A stretch of 64,000 nt of DNA from Eledone cirrhosa. Taxonomy: Eukaryota. Below are positions 1 to 62,141 of the stretch, one piece after another. The notes under the pieces are model-generated. The model ran no database searches. It was not told the origin of the DNA and saw only the letters and a program-made list of their open reading frames with translations. Every line of letters starts with the position of its first letter. Within the stretch, counting starts at the first letter, position 1. Made by a program: the position numbers and the translations under genes. The stretch spans positions 86,366,001-86,430,000 of the forward strand of contig OZ024744.1 of NCBI GenBank assembly GCA_964016885.1, given 5' to 3'.

Positions 1-759
1 TGAGATGTGTTTATTGAAAAAAACAAAGAATTAATATAAAAAGTCTGTTTGGGAACAGGTTTTGAATTGACCAATAGAAAGGAGTTAGAGATCAAGTTCA
101 AAGAATAACAGTAGTAGAAATTAAATCTAGGAGTGGAGGAGTGCGGATGTATGCTTTGAATGAAAATAATTCTATGGGGAGGAGAAAGACGGGGGTTGAA
201 ATGATGTCAAGTCAAGAAGATAGTGAAGGGTACACGAACATTTTATGTTATTAAGGAATGTTGTTAAAAACAAAGGAAAATAAAATTTTGGGATAAGGGT
301 ATTAGTGAGAAATACCCATCTTATTTAAACTACAAGGAATCTAGATATATAAGAAGAAATGAAATTAATTGATAGGTATACTTACAGGGATAAAATTATA
401 ATAATTTATATGAATGTGATAAATAAAGAAGTAAAAAATGAAAGCAATAAAAAATATAAATATGGAAAAACTGAAGTAAATAAGCATTTTTATAAAGAGT
501 ATTGTATCTATAGGGACATTGATGATATTAAAGATATTAATAATCATTGGTATTAAATGTGATAAATAGGGGATGTAATTAAATGAAGCAGTGAGGTTAA
601 AAATAATTTTAGGAAAAGATAGCTGTAAGAGGGAAATAAAATTATGAAATTCTCTGTAGTAAAATACTAATTATAGGTTAACAAAATTTAAAAAATCAAT
701 TATAATAATTTGTAAAATATAAGAGTAAGCTATATATTAATTAAGTTTATAATATTTGA

Positions 760-1700
760 AGGTTTTTTTAATTCTATGATTGCAAGATATAATTAAATCC
801 TGTCGCTTATTTAATAGGATATCCTTAGTTTTCATGATTTCAAAAAGTTCTTAGGGGCATAACCTACACTCGTATCTGCTATTTTGATAAGGGGTGGCTC
901 TTTTGAGCACGCTCCAGGTCAGGTTGTAATCTCTGTTCTTTCTATAATTATTAATTGCTTCGGCCAAGGATGTTGTATTAGCTAAGGCGGCATTTTAAAA
1001 ACTATGTTTGTGGGTATTAAATCTTAGTTTAAATTGGTTAGACGTAGCTCCGATATATGAAAGAGTGGAGTCCTAATTTTACATTTATAGACTATTATTA
1101 ATAAGACAATTTCCCTTTAATGGACAATTTCTTTTTATTCTACAGTTACAACCATTCGTAAATATTATATCAGGGGAGTTAGTCAACATTTGTGTGGAGT
1201 TTCCAGGATTTGTTATAGGTGAAGGAGATGGTGGTTTGTTATGGTTTATTTTAGTAATATTATGGTTGGTTTGATGTGTTGGTGGTGTATTTATGCTTTT
1301 CTACACTTATATGCGTTGTACGCACTTATATTCTGTTGTATATTTTTGGTAGTGGAGTATGAAAATTTGACATTAGATCTATTTAAAATTTGATGGTATT
1401 TATGGTTTGGTGGGAAGATTTTCTCTAGGATAGCAAAGAATGTTTTAGGGATATCGTCTTTAATTTATAGATTAAATGGAGTATTATACCAAGTAATCCG
1501 TCTATTGCGGTTTCGACATTTTTAAAAATATTTATACGATGTATGAGGATGTTTACTAAGAGAGTTTCTATTAGCGATTTTATTATATATAGGTTTAGTT
1601 AGATTAACTGATTTAGGTGTTTTAATCTGATTACTAAGAATTTTGTTAGTTATGTTGTTAACATATGTTGGAGTATTAGGGTGAATGGTTTTTTGAACGT
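760..1700 (-). mobile_element. Penelope-like element relic, GIY-YIG endonuclease region (disrupted)
   Basis: Manual minus-strand translation, across stops and frameshifts, gives RNRRITWYNTPFN...IFPPNHKYHQILNRSNVK, CNCRIKRNCPLKGNCL, SYIGATSNQFKLRFNTHKHSF, WSVLKRATPY...CRLC and LLNKRQDLIISCNHR. This is the motif series of the PLE C-terminal linker/GIY-YIG domain. Confidence 0.8.
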
Positions 1701-4770: not shown

Positions 4771-5040
4771 GGAAGGAAATGTTCACGTTTTTTAAAGCGT
4801 CCTATCCTGAATGCTTGTGTATAGGACGGCTACATTTTCAACTGGCTGGTTACAAACATCACAAATATGTGATCCGTACGGTAGACCTAGTGACGATATA
4901 TAGCCACAAATTGGGCTATTGGAAGTTGAATCTGTCATTCCCGATGCACAAAAGTGACAATGAACGAATTAACGAGTAATGTAGGTGGTAGTTGACAAGA
5001 CAGGCTGATTGCCGTAAAAAAATAGCTGTCATCAATAGAT

Positions 5041-5227
5041 ATAATTGTTTCTACTTTTGTCACAAGGCCAGCAATTAGCCCAGGGTATTACTGGTACTTT
5101 ATTTTATCGACCCCGTAAGGATGAAAGGCAAAGTCAACCTCGGCGGGATTTGAACTCAGATCGTAAAGGGACGTAACTATGCTGGAAAGCATGGCGTCCG
5201 ACCCTCTACCGATACTGCCAATCCACC
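5041..5227 (-). mobile_element. SINE family A
   Basis: Reverse complement of the 1708-1891 consensus, full length. Confidence 0.85.
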
Positions 5228-5739
5228 GAACTCAAAGATATAATGACAGATATAATGAAGATCAAAGATATAATGACAGCGAAAAGTAGATTGGTGAGTG
5301 GGGAAATGAATTAAATTAGAAAATTCGAATAAGGAAGATATTGTGACTGACATAGTAGGGAGGTGGATTGCCATAGAACAATTCTTTAAATCGAATTCTG
5401 ATAGTTGCTCTATGAGAGCTAAGGAGGATGCTCATAGACAGGAAAAAGAAGACAGTTCGATGAGATGAGAGTTAAATACTTATAGAAACGGATTGCTTTG
5501 ATTCTTGCTGGAAGTCGCGACGTACTACAAAGAGCTGATAATGCCAATTGAAATACATTTGATGGTATGTGCTTGTGCAAAAGGAAACACTGGATTTGGA
5601 TGATATTCACTCCAGATTTTACACTATTCGCTAACATCTTGGCGAAACTCATGTGGCGTCAGAATGGAAAAAAACTAAATTATATCTGCTAGGGAAATAT
5701 GAAAGGTGGACGGAAGCATAAACCAGCATGGATAAGACA

Positions 5740-7150
5740 GTGGGCTTGCAGCGCAGCTCAAGGAGAGGCAAATCCATGCCATTTTACAGCACTGTGAGAG
5801 GCTGGATGGATGGACCGGTGAAGCTGTTTGTGGTCTTGTTCAACCAGAACCTACAAGTAGATAACAACTGATACAAGGTAACGAGTAGGATGGGTCGAGA
5901 GGAAGCTCGAAGGATCGAGCAGATGTGGTAAACGAATTAATCTCTTCCATCGTCTACTACAGCCTGACCATTAGACCTTGCCACAGTCTGTGCCTCACTA
6001 CATTGGAATGCAGGTTCCACTGGTCAGGCGCTCGAACTGCTGTTAACAGAGTTTGCCCATAGGGCTGGGAATGCCGTGGCTAATGATACGTAAATATGCG
6101 TTGAAGCTACGGCATGTGCATACATTCCTACTCAGTGAAAATTTGTCGCTGTTTGTGATGCACCTATTTACGCAGCTCGGCTATTCGACTAGCTGCAATC
6201 TTCTGTGAAGCGAAGACCAAGCCTGTGAACCTAGCATTTTCAATGCAGTCAGGCGCTTCCTTCTACCAATCGAGAAATGCGGTCAGTGGAAATTCCATGT
6301 AGAGTGTTTCATAGAAGGCTTGTGGCCGGCAAGTGCGAAGACATCCTCGGGGAGACTCTAGACATCAACGAAAACGAACTAGCCAGTCTGTTCCGGACGG
6401 CTTTCCATTTGAAGGTTATGGATGATTTCCAGAAATCCGTGGCATGCCAATCCTACCGGCGAGTACAGCCGGTCCGAGATAAACACTACAAGCAGACACA
6501 GAAGTGCTTTCAGACAGGCCTGTTTTGTATGTGTGGTAATTTCCGACTTGTGGGGTTAAGTCGAACACCTGTTGTGGCATGTAGTACGGATCCGGCTAAT
6601 GATTGGGTCCCTCGTTAAGATTATACCCCGACACTTTTTGGCACGGAAGTGAAGGCAGTTTTCCTCTGATAGGTAGCTTTGGCAAAATAGGTTGTATGGT
6701 GGACGCGGCTGCAAGTACTGAAGACAATCACTTTCCACTTCGAATAAGCCTTCATCAAATTCTTCAAGTTACACTTGGAAAAAAAGCTGAGTGTAGAGAG
6801 GGAAGTACTGACCTTCAGTGCATCTGTTAAAAGGTGGGTGAATTTAGCAAAGTGAATGCGCCTACTCTAATCACGTACCTCTAGGCTGAAGAGTTCAGAA
6901 AGGCGAGGGTGTATTTCTGGTGTCTTCTTGATGATTAGGGTGGGGACTGATCTGTGGGGTTCCTAAACCGAACCAAAATGATGGTCCCCGCTAATGGGGA
7001 ATTCTGTTGTAATTTGTTTTCATTTTGTTACTTGTTTTGTTTTTGTTTTTGTTTATGCCTTTAGTTATGTAGAGCCCCACTCTCCTTATCCATTTGTATT
7101 ATCTCTTGGTTTTTGCGTTAATGACCAACGAATAAAGCATTATTGTTATC
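5740..7150 (+). mobile_element. Decayed 3' portion of a Tx1/L1-clade LINE related to 46583-52607
   Basis: DGPVKLF near 5808 matches WTDGPVKLLGVWF. ORF 6277-6618 (GKCEDILGETLD...MDDFQKSVACQSYRRVQPVRDKHY) matches ORF 46909-47505. The 3' UTR motif ATGGGGAATT is shared, and the copy ends AATAAAGCATTATTGTTAT. Confidence 0.75.
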
Positions 7151-7382
7151 ATTTTATCCCCCATTTTCAACCCGATGTTCTGTCGGAGTAATTCTCTTAG
7201 TCATCATCTCTACATTAGTATTCACATGCAGTGAGGGTATATTTTCTATGTTGCTCTTTTGGTTTGGCTATCTTTTAAGGATGCCAAGCCCTAATCACCC
7301 GTCCACGTATACTGAATGAAGTCATGGTGTTCTGTGTTCTTCAAACCACTGGGAATGAGGCACCAATTAGATCCGGTTAAAA

Positions 7383-7675
7383 CAGAGGTTCTCAAACCTT
7401 TGGGGCCACCGCCTCCCTCATGGTCAGGTAATAACCTCAGCCCCTCCAACCCTATTTCCAGAGAGACCTGTCTACATACAAATTCTATATAATATATAAT
7501 ACATAAAATCGTTAACTGATATATAATAAATAATACTATACTTTATATAAATAAATGTCATATATTTTTCATTTTACCTTAGGCCCTTGCAGTTCTCTGG
7601 ACCTTCTGTAGCACCCCCTCGGGGGTGCTACAGATGGTCCAGGGAACTGCTAGGAACGCCAATTTTGAGAACCTG
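7383..7675. mobile_element. hAT-type MITE
   Basis: Termini CAGAGGTTCTCAAA ... TTTGAGAACCTG; near-duplicated flank GGTTAAAA / GGTTAAAG; internal hairpin at 7584-7654. Confidence 0.65.
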
Positions 7676-8240
7676 ATGGTTAAAGCATATCTCCCTGAGT
7701 TTTGGAATAAAGTCTCTTTATACCGTATTACTCTATTTTCCTTTTTGAAAGTATATTTCCAGTGTTAACATAACGTTTCCTTAAATCGTTTCACTTTATT
7801 TCCAAAACAGAATGTAGACAACGGTACACCTTTGTTTAATGTATTACTCTATTATGTGTTTCAGCCGACTGGGTGAGGCCATACTAGAGCACCACCATTG
7901 ATTATTGTTATCTACATTTACATGTGGTATTGAAATAATTACTTTACTATATTTTTAACGGAACAGTAGCTAACTCTATGTCCCGTATTGATATATATAT
8001 TTTAAATTCTTTTCCTCTCAATGAGACAGAAGGCAACATTATGTCCAATTTTGAAATAATGTTTATTCAAATCCCGGTGAATAGCTCGTGTAAGTGATTT
8101 GAAACAACCGTGTAAAATTTATTTCCCGTATTCAAGAGGTCTTATATGCCGGACTAATTTTCATAGTTAAAAACCTACATTGAAACTGTTAAGTTTATGC
8201 TAACATAAAAGGTAAATCGCTCAGTGGTACACCAGTTACA

Positions 8241-8290
<50 letters not shown>

Positions 8291-10141
8291 AATATACGTT
8301 TGTTCTGTAATGTTAACAATTATTTAGCCACTACATGAGGCCCATCCACCTGCTTTAGACTTAAACCGACCGAGGCATTCCCCCACAAGATTATTACAAA
8401 CGTAAACGCAATTCGACTTAAGTATATCTCATAAAACACCATCCCCTGCCGCGTTTTTAATTTTTTTTTCTTTCTACTTGTCTCTTTTCAATACTTTACC
8501 CTCACAATTTCCTTTACAAAAGCCGATAAATAGTTAAGATTATGGATTGCTACACACGCACGACGGCTTCTTCCTTTTCTTAATGCGTATATGCATAGCA
8601 AATGATATAATATACTTCATAGCGGGTGCCTATGATAAGTTATTTTTACACTTGACAATGTACCAAACTTCTCACCTCTTCACCATAGACGGACATACGA
8701 TCCAACTGAATTTATTATCAGCTTTTACATTTAGCACCTTTAGCTGGACCACTTACTGTTTCATACGCGTCAAATTCATGTCAGGTATATGTGATTAATT
8801 CATTAGGATGGATCAACACCACGTATACATTAACGAACACTATACTGTAGTGCAAAAGAGAGAAGATGAGATTGATTTTCTTTGTGTTATGTGATCCAAT
8901 CTCCAGGTCGGAAGCTAAGTTTCACTCATTATCATAATAGCAAATATTCAAATAGGAATATTTGCTACACTAAAAATGCAAAATCTATATCGTATGTGTC
9001 AATGAATGCAGATTGATTGATATTTTCTGCTTCATACTATTGCTAAAATTTCACAGGTTTTCTAAATATATTTCAATTTCAAATTTGCACATATTAACAC
9101 AGAATTTGTTGCAAAGGTATTTTTTGTCAGAATATCATATTATCTGTGTGATGTATTTTGCCTAGTCACATAGCAATACATTTATAGTCGTCTTTTATCT
9201 CAATATTTTACACGTAGCTTTTGTACTCAAACTGGCAAAATAGATTACATTTTATCAAATATTTGATGTGTATTCCCCTGTGCAACACTAAATGATACCA
9301 TAATTCATATTACATTGATCTTTAGTATTCACATTTCGTCCTCTTCGTAGGTCAAAATGTCTACCGACATCAGCTAAGTGCCTATTTCTGGCGGCATTCC
9401 ATAAACCTCCGCTTCACCAATTGCCAGTTTATGTGTAAAGGAATTATCATAAATTCCTTGCTCTTCTTCAGGACAAGGGTAAGTGCCATTTATCGTCATC
9501 AGACAAATAAATTCACACCCACCGCAATTCTCACAACAATTTCAAGGAACTTTAGTAGGGAAAATGTGCCGTTTTTCTATGCGACGTCCTCTCGCATTTA
9601 TGCATCTGTTAGCATAAACCTCTGTGTAATTTCCACCAATACCTACAGCAGTACGGACAAGGAAACATTTCCATTTCCTTTTCATCTTCCTGTCCTAAAC
9701 ATCATCTCAGTATATTTAATTTTTCTCAGGCTACCGTGCAAAAACATATAACAAGATCAAAGAGAGATCCAAGCTAATCGCCCTGATATTGGTTATGAAA
9801 TGTCGTCTGATCAACCAATCATTCTCTACGATTGATAAGGTATCTCTGAAAGAAATGGAGAAATTATCGAAATATAAAATCTGAAAATAGAAAAAACGAA
9901 TATGCAGGCACAGATCCTATAAAGAATCGCGATAATAAAATAAGTGCCCAAGGAATGATAAACAAATACGCAGAAAGAAACATAAACAAAATCCAAGGAC
10001 TTATATGACATGCACAACATAACAGTACCAGGCACAGAAATACTATTACGAAGAGTAATTTCCATGCAATAGAAGCCCAAGGCAATCAGGGATGCAGTCG
10101 GAAATAAACATTAGATACAACTACTACTACCACCACCACCC

Positions 10142-10180
<39 letters not shown>

Positions 10181-10541
10181 ATAATAATAATAATAACAAT
10201 AACAGCAATAATAATAATATTGTTATATTTGGGGAAGGTCATGTTGTTCTAATATCGCCAAAATAAATGTTGGATTTACTTTTCACTTCAAAGTATTTTT
10301 ATATAAATGTAAACAGAGTTTTTCGAATATTAATAAAATTCGATTCCTTTGCAATTATGCAAACAAGCATCAATTTTATAGCCATGTCAGTAGAATGAAC
10401 CCTTTATTATTGCTCTTGTGTTGGCATGTGAACAGAACTGCAGACACTAATGTTTCTGGGTATCACCCTTCATCAGTACAGCTCACTGTTCACCTACCAA
10501 ACTGTCAGAGCTAGTGAAAATATATGCTATTTTCAAAAATA

Positions 10542-10994
10542 CACAGTCATTGATGGGCCTGATTTGCATATTAGCAGACTGGCTGATCAGTCAGATCTCC
10601 ATATTAACAGATCCACTGATCAGCGAGATTTGCATAACAGCAGACTGGTCAGTCAGTTTCCTGTATATGAGCGATAAGTGGCCGGCTTTGCCAAAATCAA
10701 AGAAAAAAGAAATGTTTCGCTCTACATGGCTGAATACAATAAATGTAATCTGGGTTTCAGCAGACAGGCTGATCTGTCAGATCTGCATATTAGCTGATCC
10801 ACTGATCAGCCAGATTTGCATATCAACAGACTGGCCAGCGATAAATGGCCGGCTTTGCCAGATTCAAATAAAAAAGAAACTGACTGGCCAGTCTGCTGAT
10901 ATGCAAATCTGGCTGATCAGTGGATCTGCTAATATGCAGATCTGACTGATCAGCCAGTCTACTAATATGCAAATTAGGCCGATCAGTCTCTGTG
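10542..10994. mobile_element. Foldback/MITE with ~120-bp TIRs built from ~33-bp subrepeats, flanked by TA
   Basis: 10542-10660 is the reverse complement of 10877-10994; a third internal copy lies at 10757-10880; ends are TA|CACAG ... CTGTG|TA. Confidence 0.7.
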
Positions 10995-12039
10995 TATTTA
11001 ATTTCTAAAAGTTTAATTTCTAAAAATTTAATTTCTAAAAGTTCTTTCATCACACATTTTCCTGTGAAATCTTCTGTGATTATCGCTGTGTTTCTATAAG
11101 TTTTGTTGTTGTTGTTGTTGTTGTTGTTGTCTCTGCTTCCGCATGCATTTGTGTGCTTGTATTCAGTTTGGTGTGTGCTCATGTTTTCGTGTCTGAATCT
11201 GCGCATGTTTGTGTGTTTATATTCTATATTTGTTCACTAGTGTGTGTTTCTGTATGGTTGTTGCTATTCCACCCATGTTTTTTGTCCAGCATAGGTTTTC
11301 TTCATTCCATTTATGTAGCCTCCCTAATTTGTCTAAGTGTCATTCCTATGTTTAGATATTTTTTAAACTTTTATGTTGTCTATTTTAGTATCGTGTTTTA
11401 GTCTGGCGTGTTCATATAGTACTGAAGTGTGTTTTTAGTCCTTTAGTCCTTTCGGACCCTTTAGTTCACTCCAGCATTCATCTATCCTCTCTCCTATGCT
11501 TTCGCTCCAATGTACGACGTTGTCATTTTTTTATGCAGGCACCCTCTGTATATCGTATGCTATTGACTATCTTTCTAGTTTTACGATTTATTTGTGGACT
11601 TACTCTACATACTACCCATTTCTTATTTGTACAGCGGGGTTTCTTGAAAGGGTTTTAGTGATCAGGAATTTTATGGTAGTTCCTGGCTTTTGTACAAATT
11701 TTAGACAAATTACTGAGGTTACGGAAATAGAATTAACAAAACCTACGCTGAATAGAAAACATAACTGGATTAGTAACATCCATCAGAATCAAAGTATATA
11801 TAACACTATATACAATATGTGTATGATGAATACGCGTATAATCTCGCAGTACATTCTTGATGCTGAGGCTATTATACATGTACGCCCATATCACTGAGCA
11901 GGTAAGCGACTGCAGAGGATGAATAATAATTCTTATATGCATGTATTCAACTCACTTAAACCGATACTGAAGTAGGTGTGATGTAACCTCAGCTTAAAAT
12001 ATCCACAGGTTAATGTAATGTTTATTATACATAAACTTC

Positions 12040-16222: not shown

Positions 16223-16657
16223 CATATATACATATACATACATACATATATACATACATACATATATGTGAAATTATAAAACCAGAAGAACATATACATA
16301 CATATACATATATACATACATATATACATACATACATATATACATACATACATATATATGCATACATATTTATATATATATATTATAAAGAGTCACGAAC
16401 CCTAGGGATGAGGTCTTGCTGTTTTAACAGCTGGAACTAGCCGTTGAAGCGGCAAGAGCTCAGCCTTCGGGTTCTTGCCACCTTAAATATATAACCATAC
16501 TCAACTAATCCAAGTATCGCGACTCTCTTGAGTAATGCATCCATCCTGATATACTATATATACACATATATATATATATATATATATTCAAACTACATCC
16601 ATTATATATTATGGAATACTGTTGGATTTTCGCTGCAATGTTTTCTATACCTTTCAT

Positions 16658-18338: not shown

Positions 18339-18793
18339 GGAGTAAGTAAGACCCCGACGGCTGAGCTCAAGCCGTTTCGACGGCTAATTCTGTACTGAAT
18401 GAAAAATCAGTTCAGGTATTTAAATAGCCGAACTTGTCAAGGGGCAATTCCATATATGGTCAAAGAGATAATCACCAGGATTGGTCATCCCACAAGGTAG
18501 TAGTAATTCTGCGATGGCAAGTTGGTGGGGGAGGTAGCCAAACCTGCCAGTAGGAGAAAAGGGGAGAGGGGGCGGAGTAGACCCATTCATGCGTTGGTGG
18601 TGCCAGCTACAGCTGGGTGTGAGGTCAAAGAGGAGGCAGGGGAGGGGTAGGGGGAGGAGGTCAATACGGTAAGTAGAACGATGAAAATGTAAAACTGTAA
18701 AAGGTATTGACTCCTATTACCCACTCTACTACCCTAAGTATTGAGTACTTTAGTGCGTTATGGTCCACCTGGTTCCTTACCACTTTTCCCTCG
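18338..18793 (-). mobile_element. Hammerhead-bearing interspersed repeat (hammerhead family A) embedded in (TA)n
   Basis: 18338-18705 is near-identical to 43645-44012, with a related copy at 40591-40860. The segment 18720-18793 recurs inverted at 32035-32110 and 60063-60120. Confidence 0.75.
18352..18444 (-). ncRNA. Type I hammerhead ribozyme, U3-A8 core variant, GUC cleavage site
   Basis: Minus strand: CCCC-UUGACAA-GUUCGGCUA-(loop)-UAGCCGUC-GAAA-CGGCU-UGAGCUC-AGCCG-UC-GGGG; stems I, II and III all pair. Confidence 0.7.
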
Positions 18794-18847
<54 letters not shown>

Positions 18848-20912: not shown

Positions 20913-21582
20913 TAGATAGATAGGAAAATGTTCAGGACCCCGACGACAGAGCCCAAGCCGTTTCGACGGCTACTTCTGTATGTATGTATCTGGACTCCAG
21001 AAATAGCCGTCGAAACGGCTTGAGCTCTGCCGTCGGTCACAACGATGCCTGCACCAGTTGATTCCGACAACGGAACAGCCTATCTATGAAATTAACGTGT
21101 ACACGGGTGAACTTTCGACAGGAACGTGTGCCACAAAATATGGCAAGACTAATCCTTCAAATGTTTGCGAGCTGAATCGAATGAAAGAACGCTGTGTCTT
21201 GAATCGAACTAACAAACTTACCATCGTGAACCTAACCAGTGAACTATGCACCTACATATATACAATCCATTAATGAAACAGTAAAAATATGTAAAACATT
21301 CTAAAAATTCTGCATCTAATAACTGCATATACACATGTACACATACAAAGCATATGCACATGCACACATACAACTCAAAACATACACATCCACACATACA
21401 ATAACATCCATACCTGTACGTATATGCATGCATGCAGACATGCATATATATCTCCCCAGTTGATGTGGTGTAAATTCCAATGAGAGAGTCTTGTAACTAT
21501 GTTAGAATCCGGCGCTCTCTCTATTGGTAAGTAAAAAAAAAATTGTGAAAGTATAACTCCAGAAGATCATACATACATACAT

Positions 21583-24638: not shown

Positions 24639-26420
24639 GGGTGGTAGGTTGACAGTATCGGTAGAGCGTCGGATAACATGCTGTATGGCATAGAGTTGCA
24701 CCCCTTTACCATCTGAATTCAAATCCCGCCGAGGTTAGCTTTGCCTTTTATCCTTACGGGGTCGATAAAATAAAGTACTAGTAATGCACTGGGGTCAATT
24801 TAATCGACTTTTCCCTTCCCCCCAAATTGCTGGCCTTGAGCCTATAGTAGAAATCATTATTGTAAAGGGGCGGTGGATTGGCAGTATCGGTAGAGGGTCG
24901 GACGCCATGCTTTCCAGCATAGTTACGTCCCTTTACGATCTGAGTTCAAATCCCGCCGAGGTTGACTTTGCCTTTCATCCTTACGGGGGTCGATAAAATA
25001 AAGTATCAGTAATGTACTGGGTAATTGCTGGCCTTGTGCCTAAAGTAGCAACAATTATTATTGATAATTATTACCAATTGATATTGTTGCTGTTAATATT
25101 ATTGTTGTTAGTAATTTGCGATAATTATTGCCAGAGAGCTGGGCTGGCAGTATCGGTAGAGCGTCGGACACCCTGCTTCGCCACATAGCGTTACATCCCT
25201 TTACGATATGAGTTAAAATACCGCTGAGGTTATCATTGACTTTCATACTTACGTAATGCGCTTGGGTCGATCTAATCGACTTTTTCCTTCCCCAAACTGT
25301 TGGCCTTGTGCCTATAATAAAAATTATTATTGCCACTTGATTCAACCCTTGATCTCGATCTATGATTTTCTTTTTAAATTAACATCAATGGCATAATGGC
25401 CATTATCTTTGTCATTCTCACTCCAAATCCGTAATAATTGTTTCTACTTTTGGCACAAGGCCATCAATTATCCCAATACATTACTGGTACTTTATTTTAT
25501 CGACCACGTAAGGATGAAAGGCAAAGTTAACCTCAACGGGTTTTGAACTCAGAACGTAAAGGGACGTAACTATGCTGGAAAGCATTGTGTCTGACCTTCC
25601 AGCGATAATTGTTTCTACTTTTGGCACAAGGCCATCAATTATCCCAGTGCATTACTGGTACTTTATTTTATCGACCCCGTAAGGATGAAAGGCAAAGTTA
25701 ATCTCGGCGGGATTTGAACTCAGACCATAAAGGGGCGTAATAATATCACCAAACCATCAATATTTCCGTGATTATCATTAAAAAATTGACGATCCTCATC
25801 AGTATGATCATTAACATCATCGACATCGACATCGTCATCGTCGCCTTCATTTTCATGGCCAACCATATTATCATTATCATTGACACAAAGGCAGTGGATT
25901 GGCAGAATCGGTAGAGCGCCGGACAACATGCTATTGCGGCATAGAGTTACAGTCCTTTACGTTCTGAGTTCAAATCCCGCCAAGGTTAACTCTGCCTTTC
26001 ATCCTTACAGGGTCGATAAAATAATGTACCAGTAATGTACTGGGGAAGTTTTAATTGACCCCCCCCCCCCTCCCCACCCAATTATTGGTCTTGTGCCTAT
26101 ACTAGAAATCATTATTATTGACACAAAGGCAGTGGCATGACGGTATCGGTAGAGCGTCGGACAACATGTTTCGTGACACAGAGTTACAGCCCTTTACGTT
26201 CTGAGTTCAAATCCCGCCGAAGTAAGCTTTGCCTTTCAAACATTACGGGGTTGATAAAATAAAGTACCAGTAATGCACTGGGGTCGATTTAATAGACATC
26301 CCCTACCCTTAAAATTGTTAGCTTGTGCCTCAATCAAGAATCTTTATTATTGACACTAAATAAAGTACCAGTAATGTACTGGGGTAATCGCTGGCCTTGT
26401 GCCAAACGTAGAAACAATAT
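24639..26420. mobile_element. Cluster of about 8 SINE family A copies (+,+,+,-,-,+,+, partial +)
   Basis: Copies at ~24639, 24870 and 25140 (+); 25433-25600 and 25605-25740 (-); 25893, 26130 and 26358 (+); separated by ATT/GTT-rich spacers. Confidence 0.85.
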
Positions 26421-31852: not shown

Positions 31853-32035
<183 letters not shown>

Positions 32036-32179
32036 GAAGGAGGTGCGGTAAGGAACCAGATGGACCATAACGCACCAGAGTACTCAATACTTAGGATAGT
32101 AGAGTGTGTAGTAGAAAAAAGTTTAACCCGACGACCGGGGTTAAACTTTTTCCTATATATATATGTATTTTTATATATA

Positions 32180-40099: not shown

Positions 40100-40605
40100 G
40101 ATAGCTGGAAAGCTAACCAATTGTAGATATGGCCAGGTGTTTCTTGCTCAACTCACACTTCAGAACTTTAAAGCTTGAAGCTTGAAACGTTTAATACTGA
40201 AATCACGGCGAGAATCTCGCAGCTATAAACCGCCCTCCCTCCACACACACACAGTTACAAGCTCATACTTCCTCGCAGACACCCACACACCTTCAAAATA
40301 CAAACGGACATACACACATACATACACAAACGCAAGCATATATATGAGACGTATATTTGTTTAAGTCTATTCACAGTACTCGCTTATATGTTCTTTCGTT
40401 TGATGTTCGCGTATAAGTTCCACTTTCTGTGTATATGTTTATGTGCCACTCTATGAACATACGTGTCTTTGTACACGTGATCTTTTACATATGTATAATA
40501 AAATTCAAATTGCATAATTTAACAGTTTAGTACTGTGGATTGATATTATTTATCATTTCGTTACTACCAGAATTGTTATATATATATATAGGAAAATGTT
40601 CAAGA

Positions 40606-40696
40606 CCCCGACGGCAGAGCTCAAGCCGTTTCGACGGATATTTCTGGACTAAATTCGATTTTTAGCGTGGTAATAAATAACCGAACTTTTCAAGGA
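40606..40696 (-). ncRNA. Type I hammerhead, U3-A8 variant (hammerhead family A, divergent copy)
   Basis: UCC-UUGAAAA-GUUCGG...CCGUC-GAAA-CGGC-UUGAGCUCU-GCCG-UC-GGG; only position 7 of the core differs from 18352-18444. Confidence 0.6.
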
Positions 40697-41070
40697 TTAA
40701 TTCCTTATGAGAAGATTGTAGTTGTGAAAAGGATTGGTCAAAATTAAATCTTTCATGGCGGTGTTTAGGAGTGGGGGTGGCTGAACTTGCCTGTAGAACA
40801 ATGGAGGAGTGGGTGAAGACGGTCAAGCGTAGAAAGTGAATTCTATACAGCAAATTCTAAGGAGTGTGGATGAATTAGGCTAGCTAGAAATCAGGCGAAA
40901 AAAGAATTCTGGAAAATCTGAGAGTGGGAAGTTATAAAATTATGAAGTTAATAAATTGAAATTAAAAAATTAAAATATAACAAATAAAAATAATAATAAT
41001 AAACAAATTTAATAATAAAAAAAAAAAATAAAATAATATAATAAAATATAATTTCAATGTATTATTTTAA

Positions 41071-41382
41071 TGGTGGATTGGCAGTATCGGTAGAGAGTCG
41101 GACGCTATGCTTTCCAGCATAGTTACGTCCCTTTACGATCTGAGTTCAAATCCCGCCGAGGTTGACTTTGCCTTTCATCCTTACGGGGTCGATAAAATAA
41201 AGTACCAGTAATGCACTGGATAATTGCTGGCCTTGTGCCAAAAGTAGAAACAATTATTTTAAACCACATAGATAATTGTTTCTACTTTTGGCACACGGCC
41301 AGCAAAAACCCAGTACATTACTGGTACTTTATTAGTAATGTACTGGATAATTGGTGGCCTTGTGCCAAAAGTAGAAACAATT
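41071..41382 (+). mobile_element. SINE family A plus an inverted pair of 3'-tail fragments
   Basis: Full copy at 41071-41255; tail fragments at 41270-41332 (-) and 41334-41382 (+). Confidence 0.8.
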
Positions 41383-42046: not shown

Positions 42047-42052
<6 letters not shown>

Positions 42053-43446
42053 TTTAGGAATAACCAAAGAGTGCTTAGAAATACATTGTTTTATTAGCTA
42101 ATAGTGTTTCATCCATACCCTATGGCAGGAATCGTCAGAGCCTATTAACAAGAGTATATCAGAGGTTGCAGGCTCCATCAAGCTCAGTCACCAGAACAAG
42201 GTTAAAGGACCAGTAGAGGGATCCCAAGGCCAGCGTTATATAGAAAAACATACAATACATGACGCACATAATGTCATAAAATGTCATAAAAATTACATCA
42301 AAAATTTATCACATAAATGGTGCAATAGATGATAAGGAGCTTTGGAGAGGATAGCAAGAAATGAGTGAGAGTGTTACTCAGCATGATCAAAAACAAAAAA
42401 AAAAACAAAAAAAAAAACAAAAACAATAATCCAGACAAAGCAAAGCATAGATACATCAATTCACAAGCAGTGCAAATACAGGATGTACAGGCAGAGTAAG
42501 AGAGCTTGCAAGCATGACGCACTAGTCATCACGATTAAATTTACTGTGGTATAATTGCATATGGTATGACACTTTAGTTCGAGACCGACTCGGCCATACA
42601 GTGAATTTCACTTGGGACGTTGGGTTGAGTGACCCAACGTGAGGACTTTGGGAGATAGCAGTTATTGCGGACCTGTCTTATTTTCAATTCCTTCACAGGG
42701 GTGCCGGCTGTACATGTACCTTACTTTACTTCAACTCATCATACTTTACTTTATTTTAGATTTAGGGTGTTTGTTGCAGACTGCCGATGTGGAGAAATCC
42801 TCTGGGTATATGTTTTGGAAACATAGTACTATATCGCCTAACGCTTGGACCTGGAACCAATGAATGTTGTTCGTAGGGTGCTGGTATGATACGGAGAATC
42901 GACCTGTTACAAGGTGATATAACTGGAGTACACCATCCTTCCTATAGACAATCATACATGTAAAGCAGCACCATCGCTAACCAACTATTCTTCTCACGGA
43001 CTCATACTTCCAAGCTCTTTTACTCTGCCTGTGTGGGCACTGCTTGTGTATTGATGTATCTATGCTTTGCTTTGTCTGGGTTTTTTTTTTTTTTTTTTTT
43101 TTTTTCTCATGCTGAGTAACACTCTCACTCATTTCTTACTATCCTCTCCAAAGCTCCTTATCATCTATTGCACCATTTATGTGATAAATTTTTGATGTAA
43201 TTTTTATGACATTTTATGACATTATGTGCGTCATGTATTGTGTGTTTTTTTATATAACGCTGGCCTTGGGATCCTCCTACTGGTCCTTTAACCTTGTTCT
43301 GGTTATTGAGCTTGATGGAGCCTGCAACCTCTGATATACTCTTGTTAATATGCTCTGATGATTCCTGCCATAGGCTATGGATGAAACACTGTTAGCTAAT
43401 AAAACAATGTATTTCTAAGCACTCTTTGGTTATTCCTAAACTTATA
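42047..43446. mobile_element. 1.4-kb element with ~450-bp inverted arms, each carrying a hammerhead-like motif (family D)
   Basis: 42047-42509 is the reverse complement of 43011-43446, around a ~500-bp spacer. Motifs at 43352-43396 (+) and 42097-42141 (-). Confidence 0.8.
43352..43396 (+). ncRNA. Hammerhead-like motif (family D)
   Basis: GCU-CUGAUGA-U-UCC...GGA-U-GAAA-C-ACU-G-UU-AGC, with stem I GCU/AGC; the mirror copy has CUGACGA. Confidence 0.55.
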
Positions 43447-43598: not shown

Positions 43599-43645
<47 letters not shown>

Positions 43646-43657
43646 GAGTAAGTAAGA

Positions 43658-43750
43658 CCCCGACGGCTGCGCTCAAGCCGTTTCCACGGCTAATTCTGTA
43701 CTGAATGAAAAATCAGTTCTGGTATTTAAATAGCCGAACTTGTCAAGGGG
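43658..43750 (-). ncRNA. Type I hammerhead, U3-A8 variant (hammerhead family A; C11.1>G)
   Basis: CCCC-UUGACAA-GUUCGGCUA...UAGCCGUG-GAAA-CGGCU...AGCCG-UC-GGGG, within the repeat at 43645-44012. Confidence 0.55.
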
Positions 43751-45049
43751 CAATTCCATATATGGTCAAAGAGATAATCACCAGGATTGGTCATCCCACA
43801 AGGTAGTAGTAATTCAGCGATGGCAAGTTGGTGGGGGAGGTAGCCAAACCTGCCAGTAGGAGAAAAGGGGAGAGGGGGAGGAGTAGACCCATTCATGCGT
43901 TGGTGGTGCCAGCTACAGCTGGGTGTGAGGTCAAAGAGGAAGCAGGGGAGGGGGAGGGGGAGGAGGTCAATACGGTAAGTAGAACGATGAAAATGTAAAA
44001 CTGTAAAAGGTACTGAGAGAGAAAAGAAATATAAGCGGAATCCGGTTACTAAGAAATAGGCTGAAGAAATACATAAATAAGTAAATAAGAAATACATAAG
44101 TAATATTCCACATAAGTAAATAAGAAATACGTAAATAATATTCCACAAGAAATACATATGTGAGTAAATAAACAAATAAGTGAGTAAAGGGATGGATAGA
44201 TAGATTTAAAAAAAAAAAAAAAAAAAAAAAATTTATATATATATATATATATATATAATGTAGAATAAAAAGAATAAGAAAACAAATGATAATGATAGAA
44301 AAAAAACCTAGATGTGGCGGAGATAAAGGGACCCTTATGCGGGGTATAAGTGCGTGTATCGTACGGTGACGGGTCAACAGAGGGGGAGGGGGGGGGTCGG
44401 AATACTACAGAGACCACCACGAAAAAAATAAATAAATAACGGTTTCTACCCCAAACACCGGGCCAGCAACCACCCAGTGCAAGAAAGTAGACTAAATTTG
44501 ATACTCCGTGACCAATAGTATTTTTAAGCAAGGCACTTTGTTTTACGTTGCTCCAGGCCACATAGCAGGTGTGTGTGTGGGGGGGGGGGGGGAGGGGAGT
44601 CTAAAGACCTGCTTTGTAAGACACTGTGTCCCGCCGACTCTCTTTGAGAATTATGTTAAACCTACACGTATCTATATTCAACTATTTACTCATAAAATTC
44701 ATGAACAAATTTGTTCTATTGTTCAAACAACTTACACTCCTCGCCGGAACAGACGGAGGTCCAATACATAAACACATGTGCATGGTACGCTGCATACGTA
44801 TACGTATTTGTATGTATGTTTTGGCGTCTGTGTGTATTTAATGATTCTGGAAATACCCTGCCAAATGCATATGTTGCCTGCTCGTATATAAGGAGATATA
44901 TTGATGTAATTCCACAACAGTTGAACTCTTCAGAAGTATGCTCGAATTTGTAAAGATTTGTAACTGTCATAGCTACTGTGAATCTGTCAAATAACCTGCC
45001 AATATGATCAAGCTGTGACGGTCACGCAGAATTAAGTTTATTTCTTTTC

Positions 45050-59957: not shown

Positions 59958-60134
59958 TTGCTCTACGGTTCTTATATATCTGATATATATTTATCCTCAT
60001 CGAGCTCTCTTTGGATTTTAGTCTTCAAATTTATTATTATTACTATATATATATATATATATAGCGAAGGAAATGTGGTAAGGAACCAGGTGGACCATAA
60101 CGCACCAAAGTACTCAATACAATATGTATATATA

Positions 60135-61171: not shown

Positions 61172-62141
<970 letters not shown>

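Follow-up and report, generated by a model that had tools for sequence, protein, structure and literature searches.

A type I hammerhead motif with a U3-A8 core at the 3ʹ end of an autonomous Penelope-like element in Eledone cirrhosa

The window analysed here, a 64,000-nucleotide stretch of DNA from Eledone cirrhosa, holds truncated copies and smaller fragments of a repeat family, together with a hammerhead motif located near the 3ʹ end of the repeat. The relevant features are as follows:

18339..18710, minus strand: 5ʹ-truncated copy of a Penelope-like element, 372 bp from the end of the 3ʹ UTR, with (TA)n about 17-20 nt past the cut site
18352..18444, minus strand: type I hammerhead motif with a U3-A8 core and N7=C, predicted to be cut between 18356 and 18355
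18434..18440, minus strand: 5ʹ box of the core, UUGACAA, in which U3 is 18440 and A8 is 18435
18357..18375, minus strand: stem III, 6 bp, with a 7-nt loop that includes the palindrome GAGCUC (0 of 7 loop columns variable between subfamilies)
18712..18794, plus strand: inverted partner of the 18339..18710 insertion, an 80-nt tail ending in (TA)n
43645..44494, minus strand: second truncated copy, about 850 bp, from the same subfamily as the first, with its hammerhead at 43658-43750
40590..41020, minus strand: truncated and decayed copy of an older subfamily, about 430 bp, with its hammerhead at 40606-40696 (N7=A)
20916..21036, no strand assigned: short inverted pair with the hammerhead 3ʹ half only
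32033..32160, no strand assigned: very short inverted insertion, element end plus tail between (TA)n runs
60058..60120, minus strand: lone tail fragment adjoining (TA)n
16434..16476, plus strand: decayed fragment of the hammerhead 3ʹ half

ORF-bearing loci elsewhere in the genome (L031 and L032) have a 3ʹ end that matches the 18339..18710 copy at 97% identity, and the 80-nt tail is the sequence that follows the hammerhead in full-length units. Further copies at 40606-40696 and 43658-43750, noticed in an initial sequence-only reading of this DNA, were both found by sequence comparison: positions 43645-44016 are 97.8% identical to the 18339 repeat over 372 nt, and positions 40602-40708 are 76.9% identical over 108 nt. 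The ‘~370-bp repeat’ of that reading turned out to be the length of a single truncated copy, as the other copies extend for about 850 and 430 bp. The 43658 hammerhead carries a C11.1 to G change. The 40606 copy was said to differ in its core only at N7, and the core is indeed kept (UUGAAAA), but the stem lesions of this copy had been overlooked. Its stem I pairs are lost, mismatches are present in stems II and III, and the predicted fraction of the active fold is about 0. Relatives in this older subfamily have ORF fragments that are about 75-88% identical to the young ORF.

Head-to-head pairs composed only of the hammerhead 3ʹ half and the tail occur at 20936-21036 in the window and also at L091, L092 and L099, and contig depth suggests that such very short pairs are far commoner than longer copies. 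The window holds other repeats as well. A decayed ORF remnant at 758-1509 (minus strand), with 36-48% identity to the 717-aa protein described below, comes from another Hydra-like Penelope element. An interspersed repeat of ~190 bp is found on both strands (1706-1899, 5035-5229, 24871-25066, 41072-41260 and about 20 more) and also sits inside the 3ʹ UTR of L031. A 366-nt inverted repeat (42047-42412 and 43081-43446) is 96% complementary with a spacing of 668 nt, and a tandem duplication of 399 bp at 61278-62109 is 99% identical.

Read on the minus strand, the 18352 copy folds as a type I hammerhead, and the stems, core and predicted cleavage site first proposed for it were all confirmed. Stem I, 4-5 bp in length, pairs CCCC (18444-18441) with GGGG (18355-18352). 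Stem II opens with G10.1 (18433) opposite C11.1 (18379) and continues with CGGCUA (18430-18425) opposite UAGCCG (18386-18381), giving one plus six pairs around a 38-nt loop II. The GAA box occupies 18378-18376, stem III joins ACGGCU (18375-18370) to AGCCGU (18362-18357) across the 7-nt loop, and C17 of the GUC site is 18356. The conserved core residues U4, G5, A6, A9, G12, A13, A14, A15.1, U16.1 and H17 are all present along with three helices.

Across the genome, 5,295 sites match a 20-nt core pattern exactly, compared with 0 for a reversed control, and thus the core motif is not due to chance. Position N7, which had been described as freely variable, is occupied by all four bases among the first 30 of these matches (13 G, 8 A, 5 U, 4 C). 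Descriptors based on CUGANGA overlook the motif, as had been anticipated, and Rfam likewise yields no match: no hammerhead is among the matches listed for the 64-kb window (150 of 179), and none was matched in an intact copy at E values up to 10.

A search of the 3.0-Gb genome with a 141-nt query produced 2,142 candidate loci. Inverted motif pairs located 2-4 kb apart flank RT and GIY-YIG coding sequence on the motif's own strand. A protein search of the genome gave 132 scored matches at 95-100% identity, many of which are open frames of 784 codons, some arranged in tandem. The tandem unit has a period of 3,531 bp, and its intact ORF (RT plus GIY-YIG) encodes 717 aa counted from the first ATG. 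Within the tandem array, the cut site lies 190 nt upstream of the ATG and appears again about 1.2 kb downstream of the stop codon. Since intact RT-endonuclease ORFs also carry this 3ʹ end, the repeat family is an autonomous Penelope-like element, and the window holds its debris in the form of 5ʹ-truncated insertions in (TA)n. The original proposal of a non-autonomous retroelement is thus not supported, and its placement next to (TA)n holds. We also rejected a retrozyme, or a non-coding unit of fixed length, because the copies, at 372, about 430 and about 850 bp, all represent 3ʹ portions of the ORF-bearing element nested within one another. Other traits of Penelope-like elements are present, including a pseudo-LTR, tandem and inverted 5ʹ-truncated copies, and an optional tail.

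The RT of the 717-aa protein carries a YRDD motif, and a GIY-YIG-type VIY...YIG at residues 591-608 is kept in the alignment, recognized as a motif and not by a profile match. Of the motifs taken from Craig et al. 2021 (PMC8557442) as defining the Hydra clade, the protein exhibits DKT for DKG, no GxKF/Y, a CxCx5C linker, and both CxxC and CxH in EN. Residue 37 marks an RWR sequence; homologues mostly have RWK, and several have RWR. The length of the ORF is comparable to that of homologues of 700-720 aa, and 2,049 homologues were found at E < 1e-10 among 8,000 scored. Pfam and PDB sequence searches with the protein gave no match. A structure model (pLDDT 87) has telomerase RTs as all of its best five fold matches, with E values from 2e-8 to 4e-7. 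The element inserts into (TA)n, as does the Hydra clade, and its 3,531-bp unit exceeds the general length of that clade (under 3 kb, which is a tendency in PMC8557442); three sister families in the genome also have 3ʹ UTRs near or above 1 kb. The putative assignment to the Hydra clade rests on these motifs and on likeness by eye to the published alignment, the protein tree being made up of unnamed homologues only.

Genomic copies have two endings, in that they either meet (TA)n some 20 nt beyond the cut site or run onward into a fixed downstream sequence, and loose ends meet (TA)n at +20 and about +100 from the cut site. Among 188 alignment ends, 131 fall at +20 or +103 and 5 fall within -4 to +2 of the cut. 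In 23 long alignments, of which 15 are informative, no 5ʹ end coincides with the cut site (0/15). Copy ends located 20 or 100 nt beyond the cut site indicate that the templates for reverse transcription were uncut there, and the lack of 5ʹ ends at the cut site means that trimming of the kind proposed below would leave no genomic trace. Depth across the unit, as drawn from three contig sets of one sample of unrecorded kind, starts at about 5,000-12,000 close to the beginning of the ORF and exceeds a million by the terminus, and a climb toward the 3ʹ terminus is expected from 5ʹ truncation.

Conservation was evaluated by column in 76 copies that were fetched by overall DNA or protein likeness and not by core patterns, where a column was scored as variable if the second base reached at least 8%. 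None of the 10 core columns is variable, nor is any of the 7 columns of loop III, and core plus stems include 3 variable columns out of 42. Outside these regions, variable columns number 12 of 35 in loop II and 8 of 13 in the 3ʹ flank, and in the 5ʹ flank 38 of 73 (near part) and 55 of 123. The difference between core plus stems and the near 5ʹ flank has a p value of 6e-7 in a test that treats columns as independent, with poorer alignment in the flank. A set of 132 copies, which includes loci chosen by core patterns, gives a like picture. The prospect that the core is no more conserved than its flanks, raised when the motif was first described, is contradicted by these counts, since core and stems are far less variable than the flanks. 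Low variability of core and stems, with N7 taking all four bases, is in sequence terms the pattern of a hammerhead. No real case of compensatory change in the stems was found within the family (1 double change in 442 cells across 26 aligned copies), and the near invariance of the stems leaves them with no covariation signal. The alignment used for this purpose was picked without C3·A8 rows, and therefore the 3-8 pair is excluded from it.

The 3-8 pair itself occurs in four states. Exact matches in a fixed 20-nt context number 5,295 for U3-A8, 1,606 for C3·A8, 45 for U3·G8 and 9 for C3-G8, and these counts are lower bounds in which both arms of one insertion are counted. A Watson-Crick pair between positions 3 and 8 is present in 5,304 of the 6,955 matches to the pattern, as it is in the copies of the window, and is absent in the C3·A8 and U3·G8 groups. 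Independence predicts 13.6 C3-G8 matches (Fisher p 0.33). The description of these positions as covariant holds between families, where U3-A8 contrasts with C3-G8, but not within the family, where C3·A8 copies are numerous and C3-G8 shows no excess. Treating the nine C3-G8 copies as a covarying subfamily was likewise rejected, as they do not exceed expectation and the 8 in the tree are scattered among C3·A8 rows.

In the 10 loci fetched for this purpose, C3·A8 copies adjoin their own, now broken ORFs, with pieces of the family ORF in 8 of them. The tree places the C3·A8 copies as a grade, with older U3-A8 subfamilies on one side and younger ones on the other, and the U3-A8 pair is found again in the youngest subfamilies. 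This tree includes 74 of 114 copies, with no more than 9 per core type (38 of 152 were dropped for truncated flanks); it is unrooted, without an outgroup, and its time order comes from end-branch lengths only. When a tree was built on the final 330 nt of the ORF, 14 of its 21 forks stayed open. U3·G8 is present in 17 of 52 matches of one old subfamily.

Comparisons beyond the family place U3-A8 among carriers of C3-G8. All 26 Hydra rows in File S2 of PMC8557442 have C3-G8, as do two other families of this genome that have 41-42% identity and a 3-4 bp stem III. Among metagenome relatives, 71 of 74 sense-strand hammerhead calls are C3-G8, with calls in 60 of 77 loci, many of which are near-duplicates; shuffled loci gave 0.7 calls per pass. 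Two of the three U3-A8 calls (both in one locus, L208) look like chance, and only L162 is convincing. This L162:2399 motif, on a metagenome contig, follows a Hydra-like ORF and looks like an independent case of a U3-A8 hammerhead, its stem III being short and palindromic. In the protein tree the Eledone family is nested among C3-G8 carriers, and thus U3-A8 is derived.

The nearest sister family (54% identity, 713-aa ORF) has a hammerhead-like end with core CAGAAGA, which places A at position 4 and retains C3-G8; the count for this core, 121 of 128, includes overlapping loci. A 5-bp stem III with a non-palindromic 7-nt loop III is possible there, and this stem is not in the lowest-energy fold. 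Loci of this sister family include L218, L226 and others, e.g. G000:C2:85916845-85921500. Flanking DNA at L218:534, L219:495, L241:1178, L119:438 and L136:1199 carries C3-G8 hammerhead-like motifs with a AUAUAUAU-type stem III, which are probably the ends of other Penelope families. Intact Hydra-like families with frames of 719 and 714 codons were also observed at L107 and L115 (G000:C1:61779416-61784509 and C1:319426944-319432034), with canonical C3-G8 hammerheads that have a long stem II. The C3·A8 and U3·G8 copies and the A4 of the sister family show that this lineage tolerates core changes that established knowledge holds to be damaging.

Folding predictions, which are secondary-structure estimates without tertiary contacts or Mg2+, allow for several states of the RNA. 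Isolated stem III is predicted at -4.9 to -7.1 kcal/mol versus 0.0 for four typical relatives, a capacity for independent folding that sets it apart from the 25 published Hydra hammerheads, and in the youngest full-length subfamily the hammerhead is the lowest-energy fold, with a predicted active fraction of 0.20 and a group median of 0.24 (n=7). These values would suit an efficient monomeric ribozyme whose long stem III removes the need for a dimer, and monomeric cleavage is on record for Penelope hammerheads of fungi in which helix III is long (Cervera and De la Pena 2014, PMC4209133). We nonetheless consider an efficient monomer unlikely. The active fraction predicted for the 18352 copy is 0.018, and the medians of other groups range from 0 to 0.19, most of them below 0.08. 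Stems II and III have common sequence, such that the stem II 3ʹ strand can pair with the stem III 5ʹ strand, and the resulting helix, which traps GAAA in a loop, is the lowest fold of the 18352 copy by 2 kcal/mol. Moreover, the dimer is predicted to be 9.5-16.5 kcal/mol below two monomer hairpins, the loop III palindrome is invariant between subfamilies, the sixth pair of stem III is broken in 13 of 26 aligned copies, and no contact between loops I and II was recognized. Inserted copies, in addition, derive from templates uncut at the site.

The reading we judge to be the probable one is that the motif is the 3ʹ-end hammerhead of an autonomous Penelope element with Hydra motifs, that the window copies are truncated, and that the RNA is likely a slow and conditional self-cleaver, with insertion probably not dependent on the cut. 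The encoded RT would copy read-through RNA from two start sites located downstream of a still uncut ribozyme. The ribozyme would fold only part of the time, with the competing helix trapping GAAA, and might cleave as a dimer via its palindromic loop, with the help of the element protein; in the youngest subfamily it might instead cleave as a monomer. The cut may serve to trim tandem read-through transcripts, so that the new 5ʹ end would lie 190 nt upstream of the following start codon. Weak and partial selection on catalysis could account for both the invariant core and the long-tolerated 3-8 mismatch. We infer, in short, a slow conditional ribozyme that would trim tandem read-through RNA under selection that is real but loose. 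Ends past the uncut site and none at the cut site fit the behaviour reported for related elements: ribozyme mutants of Poseidon PAc inserted normally in vitro, and its cleavage needed protein (Frangieh et al. 2024, PMC11167929), whereas animal Penelope hammerheads cleaved poorly and as dimers (PMC4209133).

The lack of ends at the cut site, together with C3·A8 matches attached to their own ORFs, U3·G8 in an old subfamily and A4 in the nearest sister, could instead reflect a catalytically dead relic that is kept as a protein-binding structure near the reverse-transcription start sites. This explanation is quite unlikely, because the 10 other core positions are invariant with N7 free, which is a catalysis-type pattern, the youngest subfamilies carry paired U3-A8 again, and most distant relatives examined retain the sense-strand motif. 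A further proposal is highly doubtful. It supposes that the core pair was rewritten stepwise (C3-G8, U3·G8, U3-A8, a long spell of C3·A8 held active through a slipped C3-G7, then U3-A8), and that a switch among inactive hairpin, monomer and dimer would spare the template until after reverse transcription. That C3·A8 subfamilies are active by register shift, in which C3 pairs with G7, A8 replaces A9 and an extra unpaired A precedes stem II, is very improbable: G7 is found in 94 of the first 100 C3·A8 matches whereas each of the four bases is found at N7 alongside U3-A8, a single tree branch sees the origin of both C3 and G7 with N7 varying again only after U3 returns, and Penelope hammerheads often carry an unpaired base between 9 and 10.1 (PMC4209133), but shared descent alone suffices for a linkage that represents one event and not many, G7 occurs with U3 too, and the shift requires a core shorter by one base, of which our literature search found no report.

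These results bear on the open question of why Penelope-like elements keep hammerheads, as the sole element tested in vitro inserted equally with a dead ribozyme (PMC11167929). The Eledone family offers a natural series in which the same stems carry four 3-8 states, with one mismatch at no fewer than 1,606 matches, along with young intact elements. Such a series could reveal whether loss of ribozyme activity is compatible with the spread of a lineage, or else a supposedly fatal change is tolerated by the core, and with the ~1,600 broken-pair copies of older subfamilies one could test whether transposition depends on the cut. CUGANGA descriptors and Rfam overlook thousands of copies in this single animal genome. 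Our literature search found no report of the Hydra-type family described here with its long stem III and loop II, nor of a natural high-copy C3·A8 hammerhead group, although absence from print is not established in either case. The U3-A8 core alone is already published, both for natural hammerheads (PMC3088659) and for Schistosoma Penelope (PMC4209133).

Among known systems, the non-LTR retrozymes (bioRxiv 10.64898/2026.07.22.740005) have a type I hammerhead and a proposed origin from Penelope terminal repeats, but are described as non-coding tandem repeats, in contrast to the dispersed truncations of variable length and RT-coding parent found here. The natural U3-A8 hammerheads of Perreault et al. 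2011 (PMC3088659) exhibit the same exchange of C3-G8 for U3-A8 and are reported to be active in vitro, but do not come from this element, and the available portion of that report gives no natural 3-8 mismatch group. Closer in context is Cercyon of Schistosoma mansoni (PMC4209133), which combines a U3-A8 core with a Penelope terminal repeat and has about 1,300 mostly solitary hits that were overlooked by the first descriptor. Its hammerheads differ in being minimal motifs without a stable helix III, and no C3·A8 group is mentioned in the part of the report available.

Poseidon PAc of Anolis carolinensis (PMC11167929) resembles the Eledone family in its two RT start sites that bound a tail, its AT-rich targets and its use of uncut RNA as template. 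However, it belongs to another clade, its tail measures 30-40 bp versus 80 bp in the Eledone family, and its ribozyme overlaps the ORF start and has C3-G8.

The Hydra clade (PMC8557442) shares with the Eledone element a single ORF with a C-terminal GIY-YIG, the DKT, CxCx5C, CxxC and CxH motifs, a sense hammerhead near the 3ʹ end, (TA)n targets, and both tandem and inverted copies, but units there are generally under 3 kb with RWK, compared with the 3.53-kb unit and RWR observed here. Hydra-1_Obim, a listed cephalopod family, has another protein start and a canonical hammerhead. C3-G8, a stem III of 3-4 bp and a loop III of 1-3 nt characterize the listed Hydra hammerheads (26 rows, 25 families), whereas the Eledone family combines U3-A8 with a stem III of 5-6 bp, a 7-nt loop III and a loop II of 37-39 nt.
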